26,647 bases of DNA from Myxococcales bacterium (lineage in GTDB: Bacteria; Myxococcota_A; UBA9042), in NCBI GenBank assembly GCA_037441385.1, contig JBBISH010000090.1:1-26647 (forward strand), written 5' to 3'. Under the pieces are notes generated by a model. It had not been told where the DNA came from. It did not search any database and saw only the letters and a list, made by a program, of their open reading frames with translations. A program made the translations under genes and the position numbers. Below are positions 3,669 through 19,926 of the stretch, piece by piece (positions within the stretch are counted from its first letter, which is position 1; every line of letters begins with the position of its first letter).

Positions 3669-4325
3669 ATGACGTGGCGCGAAGCCGTCGATTGGGCGAT
3701 TGGTGGAGTATTTCAGGGAAGTTGTTGGAGCTGCGGCCTGCCGGCCCGCGTCGGTGAACGCCTCGCGTGGTGCGCGGGCTGCGGCGTGGCAGTCGAGCCC
3801 GGTCCCCGCCCAACGGCGGGCGATTGGCCGGTCGCAGGCCTCTACGTCTATGCGGGCGCGGTGGCCGACGCGATCGCCAGCGCCAAGGCGCAAGGGCGGC
3901 CGTTGCCGCTGGACATCCTGGGCCGGAACTGGCGGCACCACGTGGCCACGATCGCCCAGCGTCTGGAGGTCGACGCGGTCTGCGCGGTGCCGCCAGAACG
4001 GCAGCGCTTGGCCGAGCGGGGTTGGCACCTGCCGGACCAGTTGGCCCGCCGATCGGGTCTGGCCGTGCAAGTCGCGCTGGCCCGGACGGATCACGCGGCG
4101 CCACGGCGCCTGGAGCGCGGGACGCCCCCGGTGTTCGCTGCGCGGGTGGGCCGGGGCAGGTTGTTGCTGATCGACGATGTAGTGACGAGCGGCGAAACCC
4201 TGCAGACGGCGGCGGCAGCGCTGAGTCGGGCCGGTTGGACCCCACTGGGCGCCGCCGTGCTGGCCGACGCGCGCCCGGCTTCGCTGGCGCAGGTACTGGG
4301 TCACGGTGCGTCTTGGGGTGGCTAG
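3669..4325 (+). CDS. comF: ComF family protein (Zn-ribbon plus phosphoribosyltransferase fold)
   Basis: N-terminal CWSC...CAGC, VP...R..ERGW, PRPP loop LLLIDDVVTSGETL; GGAGGA RBS before ATG. Confidence 0.85.
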   Translation: MTWREAVDWAIGGVFQGSCWSCGLPARVGERLAWCAGCGVAVEPGPRPTAGDWPVAGLYVYAGAVADAIASAKAQGRPLPLDILGRNWRHHVATIAQRLEVDAVCAVPPERQRLAERGWHLPDQLARRSGLAVQVALARTDHAAPRRLERGTPPVFAARVGRGRLLLIDDVVTSGETLQTAAAALSRAGWTPLGAAVLADARPASLAQVLGHGASWGG

Positions 4326-4335
4326 AGACTCGACC

Positions 4336-4361
4336 AATTACTGGATATTCGTTCAGTAATT
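4336..4361. promoter_or_regulatory. Palindromic operator, LexA (SOS)-box-like
   Basis: AATTACTG-GATATTCGTT-CAGTAATT: perfect 8-bp arms around 10 nt; CTG-N10-CAG core; contains the GTTCAG end of the Myxococcus xanthus LexA consensus. Confidence 0.5.
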
Positions 4362-4386
4362 CACTCTGCCTGTCGCGTCTCCAGCC

Positions 4387-4615
4387 CCAAGTGGGGCGCA
4401 AGCGAGCGATTGCGGCGACTCGCCGCGCCGATTTCGACGGCTCATACGCACCCCACCTGATTCGCGCCTGTACGGCTTCTCTGACCCGTTCTGCAACTGG
4501 CGAGAATCAGGCGGGGACCCCGGTTCGGGCCCGAAGAATTGCCCGAGTTTTCGATCCGATTCGGGCGGAATTGGTATCAAAAACGCGGAGAAAGTTTCGC
4601 TTGCGACCCGCTTGG
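4387..4615 (+). ncRNA. Structured non-coding element (candidate 6S-like RNA or retron msr-msd-like RNA)
   Basis: 19-nt terminal inverted repeats (17/19 match) enclose a 66-nt hairpin (4451-4516, 16 of 18 outer pairs) and several small stems; no credible ORF; G.U wobbles mostly favour the + strand. Confidence 0.55.
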
Positions 4616-4623
4616 TCACGTCG

Positions 4624-5730
4624 CTAGCCGAAGAGGCCGGCCAGCGACCAACCACCCGCAGCGCCACTGCACAGCCCTGCAGCCGCGAGCCACTGGACCA
4701 GCGCCGCCAACCCGGCCCAGCGCGGCGCATCCTGAGCGGCCACCAAGCGAGCGGAGCCCGCGAGCAGGATTGCGGTCAATGACCATACCGCGGGGTCGCG
4801 CGGCAAGCTCACCGCCGCGGCATCCCCCGTAGCCAACGCCAAGCCGGCGATGGCCAGGCCGGCCAAAGCCGGGACCGCGACGTCCCATCGCCGGGTGACC
4901 GCTCCCTGGGCGTCCGGCGTGCGGTAGAGGACCAAGGCCACGACCGCCAACCAGCGCCAGCCAGCCAAGGCGAACAACCCAAAATCGGCCTGCCACGCGC
5001 TGTCTTGAAGCGCCACGATGCCCGTGGGGAGGGCTGGGGCCGTATCGGACTGCCACGCCAGGGCCAGCGATGCGGCGCCAAGCAGGGCAACCCCGACCGC
5101 GCCACGTCGGCGCAACAGGCCGTCGCCCAAGACCGCCCACGTCGCCAGCCATGCGCCGCCGCCGGTCAGCAGCAGATTCGGCCAATGGGCCCACAGATCA
5201 CCGGGGTGCGGGGTCCAGGCGATCCCGGTCACTGCGGCTGCTGCGGTTGAGCCTGGCAGCGTCAGCAAGACCGGCGCCCGCCAAAGAGCCACCGGCACAT
5301 CGTCCGGACCCCACGGCAAGAACAGCAGCAGCAACACCAAGGCCAACCGCCCAAGGTTGGAACCGCCGGCCAGGCCAACGCCTTGCCAACCCAGCGCCAA
5401 AAGCACCAACCCGGCCACGCCCAGCGGGACAAAGCGCGAGGCCAGGACCACGGACGCCGGAGTGGCCACCGCCAGTGCCGCCGCTGCCGCCACGCCCGCC
5501 CACGCCAGCCAGCCGGCCGAGCGGTCGCTCCACAGCGCGAGCGCCGAGCCGACCGCAATGCCCGCCAGGACCAAACCCGCGCCCGGGGCGGCTACGTGCC
5601 CCAACCCGGCGGCCAGGGACGCGACGGCGGCCGCCAAAGCCAACCGCCGCTGGCCACCGCGAGCCGCGACCGCCAGCAACAGCGCCGCAAGCACTGCAAG
5701 TCCTCGCCAAATCATCACTTCGCCGCTCAT
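4624..5730 (-). CDS. Polytopic membrane protein, degenerate CcsA/ResC (cytochrome c assembly)-like
   Basis: ATG 5730 overlaps the upstream stop (ATGA). Many TM segments; ALQDSAW resembles ALQSxW, and GLALATG...RDPAVWSLTAILL resembles GIITG...WDPKETWSLITWL; WWD tryptophans and conserved His are absent. Confidence 0.6.
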   Translation of the reverse strand: MSGEVMIWRGLAVLAALLLAVAARGGQRRLALAAAVASLAAGLGHVAAPGAGLVLAGIAVGSALALWSDRSAGWLAWAGVAAAAALAVATPASVVLASRFVPLGVAGLVLLALGWQGVGLAGGSNLGRLALVLLLLFLPWGPDDVPVALWRAPVLLTLPGSTAAAAVTGIAWTPHPGDLWAHWPNLLLTGGGAWLATWAVLGDGLLRRRGAVGVALLGAASLALAWQSDTAPALPTGIVALQDSAWQADFGLFALAGWRWLAVVALVLYRTPDAQGAVTRRWDVAVPALAGLAIAGLALATGDAAAVSLPRDPAVWSLTAILLAGSARLVAAQDAPRWAGLAALVQWLAAAGLCSGAAGGWSLAGLFG

Positions 5731-6749
5731 GGCTGCCCCATTCGGCGCGGTCGCGCACCGGCCACCGCAGCCGCGGCCGCCAAGACCAACGCCAGCCACC
5801 ACGCGTGCACCGGCCAGCCGACCGGCGCCACCGCGATCCGTACGCGATCGCCAGGCCTAGCTGTGGCCGAGACCGTGGACGATCCCGACAAAATCGGGGA
5901 ACTCCACCAAGTCAGCGGACCGCCTTCGGCCACCGCCAGCACCGTAGGACCGCCCGCCGCCGACGCCTGCGGAATCCAACGCGCACGAACCGCCTGCGCA
6001 TCGGCCGCCTTGCCCGCCTGCAACTGCACTTGGACGGGCGCCCCGCCAGCTTGGACGGAGCCGATGAACTGGAAACGATCGGCGACGGGATTGGGAGAGC
6101 GCCCGATCCAGGTGAACTGCCAGCCCTGGCGCGTCTCGCTCTGGCCCGCGGCGAGGTGAACTTTTGCAGGCCCTTCTGGGACTTCCAAGCTGCAGTCCAG
6201 TTCGCGCCCGCTCGCGTCGGGTGCGCAAGAGCCGACGAAACGCCCTGGTGCGGGAGCCGCGTGGCCCAAGTCGTACGCCCAGGCCTGCGTGGCCGGCTGG
6301 GCCGTTTGGACATCGACGTCGAGCCAGGTCACCGCGGGTCGCCCGATGTTCCAAAGCACCCAGATGGCCCAGAACGTGGCGGCTACGAGCCACATGGCGC
6401 CCACCGCGCGCTGGCCGCTCCGGACTGCGGTCCCGTCGCCCAGCCAGCCGCTGCGCAGCGCCAACACGGCGACCGCGGCGATCCACCAGAGCATCACAGG
6501 GAGGGCAACTGTCAGATCGTCCAGGCCCAAGCTGCCCAACGCCATCAGGTCCGAGCGACCCAAGCCGTCGGCCAGCCAGCGCGGCGCATCGCGTTGCGGC
6601 AACTGCGAGCCCAGCCAAGCCAGCAGCGCGCCGGTCGTCAGCACGGCCGCGGGCGCCGCCGGTCCGCGCAGGATCTGCACGAGCGACCACCACAGCGGTG
6701 GCGCAGGGGGCAGGCTAGGGCTGGGGGACAAAGGGGAGGTTTCGGGCAC
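5727..6749 (-). CDS. Membrane protein with periplasmic domain, degenerate ResB/CcsB-like
   Basis: LLAWLGSQLPQ...LGLDDL resembles the ResB N-terminus (ASIIGTLIPQ...LGLFDV); 3 N-terminal TMs, a soluble beta-rich region and a C-terminal TM. GTG 6749 follows GGGAGA; GTG 6761 is the alternative. Confidence 0.6.
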   Translation of the reverse strand: MPETSPLSPSPSLPPAPPLWWSLVQILRGPAAPAAVLTTGALLAWLGSQLPQRDAPRWLADGLGRSDLMALGSLGLDDLTVALPVMLWWIAAVAVLALRSGWLGDGTAVRSGQRAVGAMWLVAATFWAIWVLWNIGRPAVTWLDVDVQTAQPATQAWAYDLGHAAPAPGRFVGSCAPDASGRELDCSLEVPEGPAKVHLAAGQSETRQGWQFTWIGRSPNPVADRFQFIGSVQAGGAPVQVQLQAGKAADAQAVRARWIPQASAAGGPTVLAVAEGGPLTWWSSPILSGSSTVSATARPGDRVRIAVAPVGWPVHAWWLALVLAAAAAVAGARPRRMGQP

Positions 6750-7094
6750 GAGGTCTCCCACTGGTCAAGGCTCAGGAGTCGGGGAGAATCGCTGTGGCCT
6801 TGCGAAGTTGCACGCACACCGTTGCACATGCAGTGCGCCGCAGCAACCGGCGCGGCCCGGTGGGGGGCTCAGCGCGGCCGCCTTGGTTGGTCTAGGAGTC
6901 TGTCGGAGAAATGCGATCAATCTATAGGCCTATTAGGTATAGCTAGTTGATCTTATTACGCTCCGCCAGTTTCCCAGCCATCTTCGTTTGTGCAACCGGC
7001 CGAGCATCACCCGAAGTGAATTCGTTCGATTTCTACCAGTTGCCGTCGCGCACGCCGCGGCGCTGGGAGCGAGTCGGATGATCCCGACACGTTC

Positions 7095-17272: not shown

Positions 17273-19926
17273 GCCGCGGGCATGCAAACCTTGCCAAGGC
17301 GGCGCTGGCCCTGGCGATCGCGGCACTGGTGCCCGTGGTCGGCTGTGGCAGCTCAGCCAGCGGCTCTGGCCAAAAGACGGCCGACACAGCGGGCGATGCT
17401 GCGGCCGCCGACCTGCAGGGCGACGTCACCGGCACGGCCGACGCGGTGACCCCCACAGCGCTGCCGGGCATTTGGACGCAGATCAAAGTGCCGGGGGATC
17501 CGGCGGTAAGCCTGCATGGGGTCTGGACCGACGGCCCCACCCGCAGCGTCGCCGTGGGCAGCGACGGAACCATTTTGCAGAACAACGGCTTGGGCTGGAA
17601 GGTCGCCAGCGCTGGCGTGTTCCCGACGCTCCACGCCGTCAGCGGCGCCCCCGGCGGCAACCGGGTCTTTGCCGTGGGCCTGGGCGGCACCATCGTCCAA
17701 AACATCGGCGCCGGCGGACAGTTCGGCAGCACCTGGGGCCCGCCCGGCGGCTGCACCAAGGCGGGCGACTGCAACGACGGCGACCCCTGCACCGCCGACA
17801 GCTGCGAATCCGGGCTATGCAGCCATCTGCCCGCAGGCGGGGCAACTTGTTGCGGCGGCTCTGCTTTTGCGGACTCCTTTGACAAAGGCCTGGGCAACTG
17901 GACGGTGAGCGACACCAGCAGCGGTGGCATCGTCTGGTCCGCCGCCAGCATGAAAAGCGTTGACGGCACGTCACGTTACACCAGCGCCCCCAACGCCGCC
18001 TACTTTGGCCGGACCGACGCGGTCTGCCCCAGCGGCGAGGGCTTTTGCCCCACCTTTGACAACGGCAAGACCGTGGCGTCGACCATGATCTCGCCCGCGG
18101 TGCAGCTGCCATCGGCCAAGAAAATCACCCTATCGTTCATGGTGCTGCTGGACGTTGGCTCGGGCATCTTTGACCAACTGCAGATCCAGGTCGCCCAGCC
18201 GAGCGGCGCCAAAGAAGTGGTGTGGGACAAGCAAAAGCAGCTGACCACGGGCTCGACCGGCGGGCAGTTCGTGGCGCAGACCGCCGATCTCACCAAGTTT
18301 GCCGGTCAGAAGATCCATCTGGAGATCAGCTTCAACTCCTTGGACAAGAACAACAACGCCGGTGAGGGCGTCTACTTGGACGATCTGGCGATCACCTCGC
18401 AGTGCAACCCACCCGCGGCGACCAGCGGCAGCCTGACCTCCAGCACGCTGTTCAGCGTGTGGGCGGCCGGCGACGACGACGCCTGGGCCGTGGGCGAGGG
18501 CGGTTTCACCGCGCACTGGGACGGCACCGCTTGGACGGCCGGCTCGGGCAGCAAGACCGCGGACTACGACACCCTCGGCGGCAGCAGCCACTTCGCGCTG
18601 CTCGGCGGCACCGGCGGGTTCTTGGCACAGGTCTCGGCCGGTGGAGTCAAGGGCCAAGCCAGTGGCACCCAACTAGAAATCACCGCGACCGCCGTGCGCG
18701 AGAACGCCGAGGGCACCGCCATCGCCCAGGCCATGGCCGTGGGCACCAAGGGCCTAGTCCTGTACTTTGACGGCAGCGTCTGGAAGAAGGACGCCGCGTC
18801 ACCGCTTGCGGGCCAGGACTTGCGCGGGGTGGCAGCTTTTGGCGACGGCACCTGGGCGGCCGTGTCCAGCAGCGGCAACGTGTGGCAGCGCAATGTGGCG
18901 GGCACCTGGGAAAAGGCGACCTCGACCGGCCTGCCGCTGTACGCGGTGGTGGCGACCGGCAAGGACACCGGCTACGCCATGGGCCTGTCGGGAGCGCTGG
19001 CCGAAAGAAACGGCGACACCTGGCAAGTGAGCCAGCTGGCGGGCGGCGGCTCGGCGCGGGCGGCCTGGGCCGACGACAAGGGCAATGGCTGGGCGGTCGG
19101 CGACGGCGGCAGCGCCTGGAAGCTCGAACAGGGGAACTGGAACACCGCGCAAACCGGCATGTTTGTCACCCTACAGGCCGTGTGGGCGGCCGCACCCGAC
19201 GACGTGTTCGCCGCCGGCCAAGGCGCCACGATTATCCACTACGACGGCACGGCCTGGACCCCGATGGCAGGACCCGTGGCGGGCGATTGGCGCGGACTTT
19301 GGGGCAATTCTTCCACGGATGTCTACGCGGTGGGCACGGGCGGCGCGGTCGCACACTGGAACGGCCAGGACTGGTCGCTGCTGTCCGAGCCCGTCACCGC
19401 CACCTTGCGCGCAGTGTGGGGCCTGTCCGGCAGCGACATCTGGGCCGTCGGCGAAGGCGGAAACATATACCATTACAGCGGCTTGGGATGGAAGCTGACG
19501 CCCATCGAGCCCTACCAACCGGATCCGAATCAGAAGGCCTACAAGGTGAAGTCGACGCTGCTGGCGGTGTGGGGACCGACGAGCGGCGACGTGTGGGCCA
19601 GCGGCGAACCCGATGGCGACGGCCGCGGCGTGCTGGTGCACTGGGACGGCCAGACCTGGACGTACGCGCCGCTGCTCCAAGAGTGGGGCCACCCGGTGCG
19701 CGCGATCTGGGGCTGGGGCCCGGCCGACATCCTGCTGGCCGGCACTGGCGGCGGCGTGCTCCACCTGGACAGCACGACCAGCGAGTGGAAGGCCCTGCAA
19801 ACGGGCACGATCGCCACCTTGTTTGGGATCGCACCGTTTGCCAAGGATGCGCTTTTGGTGGGCGACATCGGCGTGGTGTTGCGCTATACCCCACCCGTCC
19901 ACCCCAGCGGCGGAGGCGAAAAATGA
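17269..19926 (+). CDS. Lipoprotein, 14-blade beta-propeller with inserted Cys-rich module and jelly-roll domain
   Basis: ATG 17269 overlaps the upstream stop (ATGA); lipobox VVG-C (Cys 17344); CNDGDPCTADSC repeat; insert ending N..GEGVYLDDL; 2+12 blades. Confidence 0.88.
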   Translation: MSRGHANLAKAALALAIAALVPVVGCGSSASGSGQKTADTAGDAAAADLQGDVTGTADAVTPTALPGIWTQIKVPGDPAVSLHGVWTDGPTRSVAVGSDGTILQNNGLGWKVASAGVFPTLHAVSGAPGGNRVFAVGLGGTIVQNIGAGGQFGSTWGPPGGCTKAGDCNDGDPCTADSCESGLCSHLPAGGATCCGGSAFADSFDKGLGNWTVSDTSSGGIVWSAASMKSVDGTSRYTSAPNAAYFGRTDAVCPSGEGFCPTFDNGKTVASTMISPAVQLPSAKKITLSFMVLLDVGSGIFDQLQIQVAQPSGAKEVVWDKQKQLTTGSTGGQFVAQTADLTKFAGQKIHLEISFNSLDKNNNAGEGVYLDDLAITSQCNPPAATSGSLTSSTLFSVWAAGDDDAWAVGEGGFTAHWDGTAWTAGSGSKTADYDTLGGSSHFALLGGTGGFLAQVSAGGVKGQASGTQLEITATAVRENAEGTAIAQAMAVGTKGLVLYFDGSVWKKDAASPLAGQDLRGVAAFGDGTWAAVSSSGNVWQRNVAGTWEKATSTGLPLYAVVATGKDTGYAMGLSGALAERNGDTWQVSQLAGGGSARAAWADDKGNGWAVGDGGSAWKLEQGNWNTAQTGMFVTLQAVWAAAPDDVFAAGQGATIIHYDGTAWTPMAGPVAGDWRGLWGNSSTDVYAVGTGGAVAHWNGQDWSLLSEPVTATLRAVWGLSGSDIWAVGEGGNIYHYSGLGWKLTPIEPYQPDPNQKAYKVKSTLLAVWGPTSGDVWASGEPDGDGRGVLVHWDGQTWTYAPLLQEWGHPVRAIWGWGPADILLAGTGGGVLHLDSTTSEWKALQTGTIATLFGIAPFAKDALLVGDIGVVLRYTPPVHPSGGGEK

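Follow-up and report, generated by a model that had tools for sequence, protein, structure and literature searches.

Two nested mobile repeats fill the spacer between convergent genes

The interval at 4322-4627 of the window (the whole 26,647-nt stretch of DNA that we analyzed) is very probably non-coding mobile-repeat DNA, one repeat lying within another between two convergent TAG stop codons, and not a single structured RNA gene. Its inner 229 nt (4387-4615) had been read in a first-pass annotation as a 6S-like RNA or an orphan retron msr-msd RNA, with a MITE ranked last. The last reading was right in kind; however, what was taken as one element of 229 nt is the inner portion of a repeat that we call element A, interrupted by a second repeat, element B. 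A and B are new, unnamed families of a well-known kind, ordinary litter of a bacterial genome. The layout of the block and its flanking genes is as follows.

3669..4325, plus strand: upstream ComF/phosphoribosyltransferase-like ORF; its TAG stop (4323-4325) lies within the left terminal CTAG of the block
4322..4384, plus strand: module A1 of repeat A, a 63-nt hairpin starting with CTAG and here ending with CCAG (CTAG in most copies)
4341..4356, no strand: SOS-box-like site CTGGAT-ATTC-GTTCAG in A1, one mismatch from CTGRAC-N4-GTTCAG
4385..4441, plus strand: head of module A2, holding the 5' arm 4387-4405 and the stems 4412-4426 and 4427-4441; about 75-92 copies by BLAST depth
4442..4444, no strand: left TCA of the element B target-site duplication, from sequence and copy comparison
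4445..4576, plus strand: element B, a MITE-like repeat of 132 nt holding the 66-nt hairpin, the 12-nt palindrome and the 3' hairpin
4577..4579, no strand: right TCA of the element B target-site duplication, from sequence and copy comparison
4580..4596, plus strand: A2 resumed beyond B, containing the A-family word GCGGAGAAAGT and aligned with other A copies
4597..4627, minus strand: atypical A tail; 4597-4615 is an inverted A2 head, followed by a 12-nt end that closes with CTAG at 4624-4627
4624..5802, minus strand: downstream ORF of 392 aa, without a family match; its stop (CTA on the plus strand, 4624-4626) lies within the right terminal CTAG

The sequence features within 4387-4615 are real and non-random. 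In our repeat scan, the inverted repeat described earlier (4387-4405 and 4597-4615) is complementary at 17 of 19 positions, and no 19-nt inverted repeat with two or fewer mismatches arose in any of 200 mononucleotide shuffles of 4300-4700. The interior structures are likewise present: the small stems 4412-4426 and 4427-4441, both found in the minimum free energy (MFE) structure; a long hairpin at 4451-4516, with 21-nt arms (4451-4471 and 4496-4516) that are 86% complementary; the palindrome TTCGGGCCCGAA at 4524-4535; and a hairpin around 4537-4572. An AGC containing G4406 directly follows the 5' arm. The alternative pairing of 4427-4436 with 4566-4575 fared less well; read from the sequence, 7 of its 10 positions pair, but the pairing is weak. 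The plus strand of the stretch has a predicted MFE of -111.5 kcal/mol, against -86.0 +/- 4.3 kcal/mol for 200 dinucleotide shuffles (z -5.88). The minus strand folds equally well (z -5.71), which points to palindromes in DNA, not to a strand-specific RNA.

The treatment of 4387-4615 as a single unit was not borne out, as the stretch crosses the borders of two different repeat families. A BLAST search of 4330-4625 against its own genome (6.6 Mb, 221 contigs) returned dozens of matches of 93-99% identity to the middle of the query, and a sensitive search returned 471 HSPs. Depth along the query was ~300-368 over 4446-4566, ~55-92 over 4334-4438 and 1 (the self match only) over 4590-4625; this unevenness indicates that two families meet inside the stretch. 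Matches to B cover 43.2 kb of the genome and matches to A cover 11.7 kb.

Element B is a 132-nt repeat flanked by a duplicated TNA

A 140-nt query for element B yielded 374 HSPs in its own genome, of which 245 span 85% or more of the query at a mean identity of 89.3%. The window copy and the family consensus agree at 129 of 132 positions, and the best other copies are 97-99% identical to the window copy. When copies are aligned, conservation ends at the 132-nt core, with T-N-A on either side. A clean TNA is found at both ends of 73 of the 231 near-full copies with flanks, and in these 73 scorable copies the middle bases of the two triplets are identical in 65 (25.2 expected by chance), complementary in 2 and in another relation in 6. 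The identical middle base at both ends indicates a 3-bp target-site duplication rather than an inverted repeat. Because the duplicated triplet is TGA, TCA, TAA or TTA across copies, the target is TNA and not only TCA. In the window copy the triplet is TCA, at 4442-4444 and 4577-4579, and the first-pass annotation was therefore wrong, for this inner element, in finding no evident target-site duplication.

The terminal inverted repeats of the B consensus are weak (11 of 24 positions). B shows no coding signal; that four of its six frames are open is expected at 68% GC. Elements A and B are both short, non-coding and present in many dispersed copies, as MITEs are, and B additionally carries a target-site duplication. 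The earlier reading held that many dispersed copies would make the stretch a MITE or REP element, and near-full copies in the genome number 44 for A and 245 for B. Outside its own genome, B occurs in 2 of 10 other genomes of the same genus (multi-copy in G007, at 81-87% identity, and marginal in G001), and it was absent from the remaining 8 as well as from the 30 more distant genomes searched. Comparison of a 24-nt B core with named genomes gave one "MAG: Deltaproteobacteria bacterium" among the matches listed.

Element A is modular and bounded by CTAG

Uninterrupted copies of element A run from CTAG to CTAG over ~155 nt and consist of two modules, A1 (a hairpin of ~62-63 nt) and then A2. With a 162-nt uninterrupted copy as the query, 101 HSPs were detected in the own genome, of which 44 are near full length; the left 114 nt of A gave 78 HSPs, 50 of them near full length. 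The modules also occur apart. There are 51 BLAST matches to A1 in the genome, 44 followed by A2, and 107 matches to A2, 63 without a detected A1. Module A1 of the window copy is predicted to fold at -20.3 kcal/mol (z -3.8), and the 18-nt ends of the window block (4320-4337 and 4612-4629) are 83% complementary in the repeat scan. Among 43 near-full copies, 30 have CTAG at the 5' end. Since CTAG sits at both ends, a target duplication is not separable from the terminal CTAG. By crude gene calls, 25 of 86 A ends lie no more than 5 nt from a called stop codon. In the same-genus comparison, A is multi-copy only in its own genome and in G007.

The tail of the window copy departs from this plan. The sole genome matches to 4597-4627 are reverse-complemented A2 heads in other A copies (on contigs C1 and C67), which identifies the 3' arm of the 19-nt inverted repeat as an inverted copy of the 5' arm motif. 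The head and inverted head occur without an insertion in one other copy (C120:13480-13560, 81 nt). The A2 head motif, with three substitutions allowed, occurs 342 times on the two strands of the genome.

Two further repeated sequences were observed in the window. A dispersed repeat of ~205 nt at 6885-7094 has 28 BLAST matches at 72-82% identity, a CTAG start and inverted ends of the GAG..TGTCGG type; members of this family frequently adjoin the 3' CTAG of an A copy. A 60-nt stretch at 17748-17807, within a very large ORF, has up to 25 other matches in the genome and is probably a repeated protein-domain segment.

A proposed order of events at the locus

When B and one TCA are taken out, the spacing of A becomes that of uninterrupted copies, as read from the aligned copies. 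No A match continues into B, and the A-B junction is therefore unique to the window locus. Without B, 4387-4615 collapses to a predicted 94-nt hairpin (-49.0 kcal/mol, z -4.7) in which the TCA lies in an unpaired stretch. We propose that a copy of A came first at 4322-4627 and that B arrived afterwards. In this copy the A2 tail would be an inverted duplicate of the A2 head, giving the 94-nt hairpin whose stem is the 19-nt inverted repeat. The 132-nt B would then have inserted at the TCA in the unpaired middle of the A hairpin, duplicating the TCA, and the internal palindromes of B would account for the remaining hairpins in 4387-4615.

Insertion into hairpin loops does not appear to be a rule for B. 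Comparing reconstructed empty sites with mismatched-flank controls, we found flank-to-flank stems of at least 9 bp in 7 of 64 empty sites versus 198 of 2000 controls. Copies of B next to A-family sequence number 8 of 258, above the 0.18% share that A has of the genome. For annotation, the gain is two repeat families: B, which is 132 nt long and duplicates TNA, and A, which is CTAG-bounded, modular and often found on TAG stops.

The flanking genes are conserved, the spacer is not

The upstream ORF (3669..4325) matches the Pfam Pribosyltran model below its cut-off (E 1.7e-5) and the NCBIfam comF model far below its cut-off (25.5 bits), and it has orthologs in 7 of 10 other same-genus genomes. 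Searches of Pfam and NCBIfam returned no family for the downstream ORF (4624..5802), which has syntenic orthologs at 77% identity in G007 and 62% in G005. In G007, the nearest syntenic relative, both flanking proteins are 77% identical and syntenic. In the orthologous ~250-nt spacer of that genome, nothing resembles A or B significantly (best E 0.13), and the G005 spacer is also different by eye. Because these orthologous spacers carry other sequence, only the flanking genes are conserved at the locus. Both elements are missing from the orthologous G007 locus, a presence/absence difference between related genomes, and different elements have landed repeatedly in the spacer between this convergent gene pair. 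Among the relatives, whose spacers simply differ, no clean empty site was found for the locus. The G007 spacer (G007:C439; 2150-2400 of the extracted locus) contains a third repeat family of ~160 nt, with at least 35 matches in the genome to which the window belongs.

The position of the block at two gene ends raises the alternative that it is a mobile repeat by origin that has been co-opted here, its hairpins acting on the convergent 3' ends as a terminator, roadblock or stabilizer. REP and Correia elements have been reported to act on transcript 3' ends. The block sits exactly between two convergent stops, its predicted fold is very stable on both strands, and A1 contains a match to an SOS box; if LexA bound the site at 4341-4356, it could act as a further, damage-dependent roadblock. 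Moreover, A and B appear over-represented between convergent genes relative to gap length: 60 of 184 classified B copies and 13 of 23 classified A1 copies lie there, versus a 19% share of gap length, counts that are no more than indicative, since the home-made gene caller behind them is crude and put the upstream flanking gene of the window on the wrong strand. However, purifying selection and a CTAG/TAG target preference would also give such enrichment at gene ends. No terminator-like or promoter-like site was detected in 4250-4700, the orthologous spacers of G007 and G005 differ so that the locus is unconserved, and covariation is absent among B copies. We consider co-option unlikely and favor nested mobile-repeat DNA as the description of the block.

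Readings of the stretch as an RNA gene

We considered it very unlikely that B or A2 represents a multi-copy family of small structured RNA genes with an expressed member in the window. Such a family would fit the conserved length, the strong predicted hairpins and the hundreds of similar copies. The pattern of substitution in B argues otherwise. RNAalifold, applied to 230 distinct B copies, did not return a consensus structure. With the consensus fold as the reference, we also scored the 230 distinct copies, 9 of them from the relative; at all 44 pairs in that fold, copies with a broken pair (4-118) exceed those with a compensatory double change (0-6). The B copies decay neutrally, and selection on structure is unsupported. 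Further points against RNA genes are that the copies bear target-site duplications, that the window copy matched no Rfam family and that no promoter-like site was found in 4250-4700, and that the distribution of the copies among lineages is patchy.

Both of the specific RNA classes proposed for the stretch, 6S RNA (RF00013) and retron msr-msd RNA, resemble it in size and in an overall fold that is rod-like or flanked by an inverted repeat. The stretch differs from both in lacking a covariance-model match and an adjoining reverse transcriptase (RT), in having multi-copy parts and in occupying an unconserved locus. In the whole window, an Rfam scan gave 0 families at the gathering score. At E <= 10, only two chance-level matches fell in 4200-4800, one to a snoRNA model and the other to gntR-DTE, the latter outside the element.

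An orphan msr-msd RNA of a retron, with a distant RT using it in trans, would be consistent with the flanking inverted repeat, with the G in an AGC context just inside it and with the presence of one retron-type RT in the genome. The earlier observation that no RT lies nearby holds: the sole RVT_1 match in the genome is on another contig, C119 (C119:16638-18293, 551 aa). This retron-type RT scores 507.5 bits against the PADLOC RT_other model and 470.6 bits against the retron RT_outgroup model, and is sub-threshold for the NCBIfam retron models. An Rfam search around it returned nothing, and its own non-coding RNA was not identified. However, the only match between 4330-4625 and C119 in the genome BLAST is an ordinary B copy ~1 kb upstream of the RT ORF, and no Rfam family was found in the window. 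The parts of the proposed retron are multi-copy: repeat A supplies the presumed a1/a2 repeats, as its head and its inverted head, and the presumed msd is a transposon of 132 nt that has its own TCA duplication and is present in hundreds of copies. As both are explained as transposon parts, the retron reading is not needed, and we judge it highly improbable.

A 6S-like RNA (ssrS) at 4387-4615 has a negligible likelihood, since its rod-like fold with internal loops is offset by the lack of any RF00013 match in the window at the gathering score or at E <= 10, by parts that are repeats and by a locus unconserved in relatives. RF00013 also matched nowhere else in the genome, a blank that says little about the location of the true ssrS given that the genome is 90.9% complete and that the model gives a match in only 5 of 14 control genomes.

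Recognition of the nested repeats removes a false lead, in that what looked like an RNA, a stretch with a strong predicted fold in the high-GC MAG of a myxobacterium-like organism, proves to be nested transposon debris. At several hundred further sites of the genome, the A and B families will mislead in the same way.

Candidate movers of A and B

We propose that a TNA-duplicating DDE transposase, presumably of the IS5 family and similar to the IS1031 group, moves B in trans. Elements of the IS1031 group of the IS5 family generate a 3-bp TNA duplication. Element A may be moved by a CTAG-targeting enzyme, which would explain why it so often lands on TAG stop codons. In the 221-contig, 90.9%-complete draft assembly we found no autonomous element with the ends of A or B, so the transposases of both families are putative.

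Several candidate parents of B were rejected. Distant paired B ends proved to be separate B copies around seemingly ordinary ORFs, and solo B ends were truncated or deleted copies. Two matches to PF01609 were unrelated, and PF13359 had no match in the genome. An IS5-family IS (PF13586; four matches of 23-25 bits, below the cut-off) has termini unlike those of B. This multi-copy IS breaks the assembly, its ends lying at contig ends (C156:1-200, C174:1-200 and the last 200 nt of C28 and C158). After its four identical ends come TTA, TGA, TAA and TCA; the element thus duplicates or targets TNA, which indicates that a TNA-duplicating IS is active in the genome.

Among known mobile elements, B resembles IS5-derived MITEs in being 132 nt long and non-coding, in its hundreds of dispersed copies, in its TNA duplication, in its restriction to few lineages and in the 97-99% identity of its youngest copies. 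It differs from them in its weak terminal inverted repeats (11/24), its strong internal pairing and the lack of a matching autonomous IS.

REP, BIME and REPIN elements offer a second comparison, being short, palindromic, mostly extragenic and prone to clustering and nesting, like A and B. As in these elements, the A2 head places a small hairpin next to a conserved tetranucleotide, and the two inverted A2 heads of the window copy recall a REPIN doublet. Unlike in REPINs, the doublet form of the A2 head occurs at only 2 loci. The target duplication of B is also unlike Y1 (RAYT) transposition, as Y1 transposition is not known to make a target duplication. Of the six Y1_Tnp genes found in the genome, none was seen to be flanked by A or B; three have short repeats of a different kind around them, which by eye do not resemble either family. 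These three IS200/RAYT-like genes (C132:9613-10152, C37:45371-46368 and C120:17112-18117) have their repeats, present in 10-20 copies, on both sides and appear REP/RAYT-like.

Module A1 carries an SOS-box-like site

The one point that could rise above the ordinary is module A1, the hairpin bearing an SOS box. The palindrome at 4339-4358, proposed earlier as an SOS box, belongs to A1, and its predicted site at 4341-4356 is one mismatch from the operator type of the host. In this genome, the sequence upstream of lexA contains CTGAAC-N4-GTTCTG, one mismatch from CTGRAC-N4-GTTCAG, and that upstream of recA contains CTGAAC-N4-GTCCAG. A UvrA ORF has an exact CTGRAC-N4-GTTCAG motif 48 nt upstream, and another immediately precedes an IMS-family (Y-family) polymerase ORF. 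The box type of A1 and of the host agrees with the M. xanthus box given in excerpts of a published report as CTRHAMRYBYGTTCAGS (PMC9705874).

Genome-wide, the strict motif CTGRAC-N4-GTTCAG gives 24 strand-hits, 10 of them in A copies. Across the 51 A1 copies, the box has no mismatch in 8, one in 16, two in 22 and three or four in 5; two or fewer mismatches are thus found in 46 of 51 copies, versus 23 of 5000 random 62-mers. Conservation within A1 is among the highest in the columns of the CTG and the GTTCAG half. Because A1 copies share ancestry, the box counts as one event and not as 51.

We speculate that A1 is a mobile LexA operator. If LexA occupied its copies, these might shape the SOS response by acting as a sink or a roadblock, or the mobility of the element itself might be tied to DNA damage; judged from sequence motifs, the idea is a tentative one that we hold to be possible but doubtful. 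The ~50 A1 hairpins outnumber the roughly nine chromosomal boxes several-fold. A promoter role for neighboring genes is unlikely because most A1 copies are at gene ends, and we rejected A1 as such a promoter: the window copy has no promoter-like site, and crude calls place only 1 of 23 classified copies between divergent genes.

Searches of the open-access literature found no LexA-box-carrying MITE family, which does not establish absence from print, and nothing relevant on MITEs in myxobacteria. A partial parallel comes from M. tuberculosis, where elements belonging to the 13E12 family of repeats are bound by LexA, according to excerpts of the report (PMC3381160). As described in these excerpts, 13E12 resembles A in being a dispersed repeat family with an SOS box in its copies. 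The excerpts present 13E12 as gene-bearing insertion elements with LexA binding seen by ChIP-seq (PMC3381160), whereas A1 is a 63-nt non-coding hairpin known from sequence alone. As a separate observation, tandem short repeats (with units like CACCCCTAGCACAGA and GAGCCC) lie just downstream of the lexA and recA operators, at C5:39470-39560 and C5:58820-58910, in leader or N-terminal regions.
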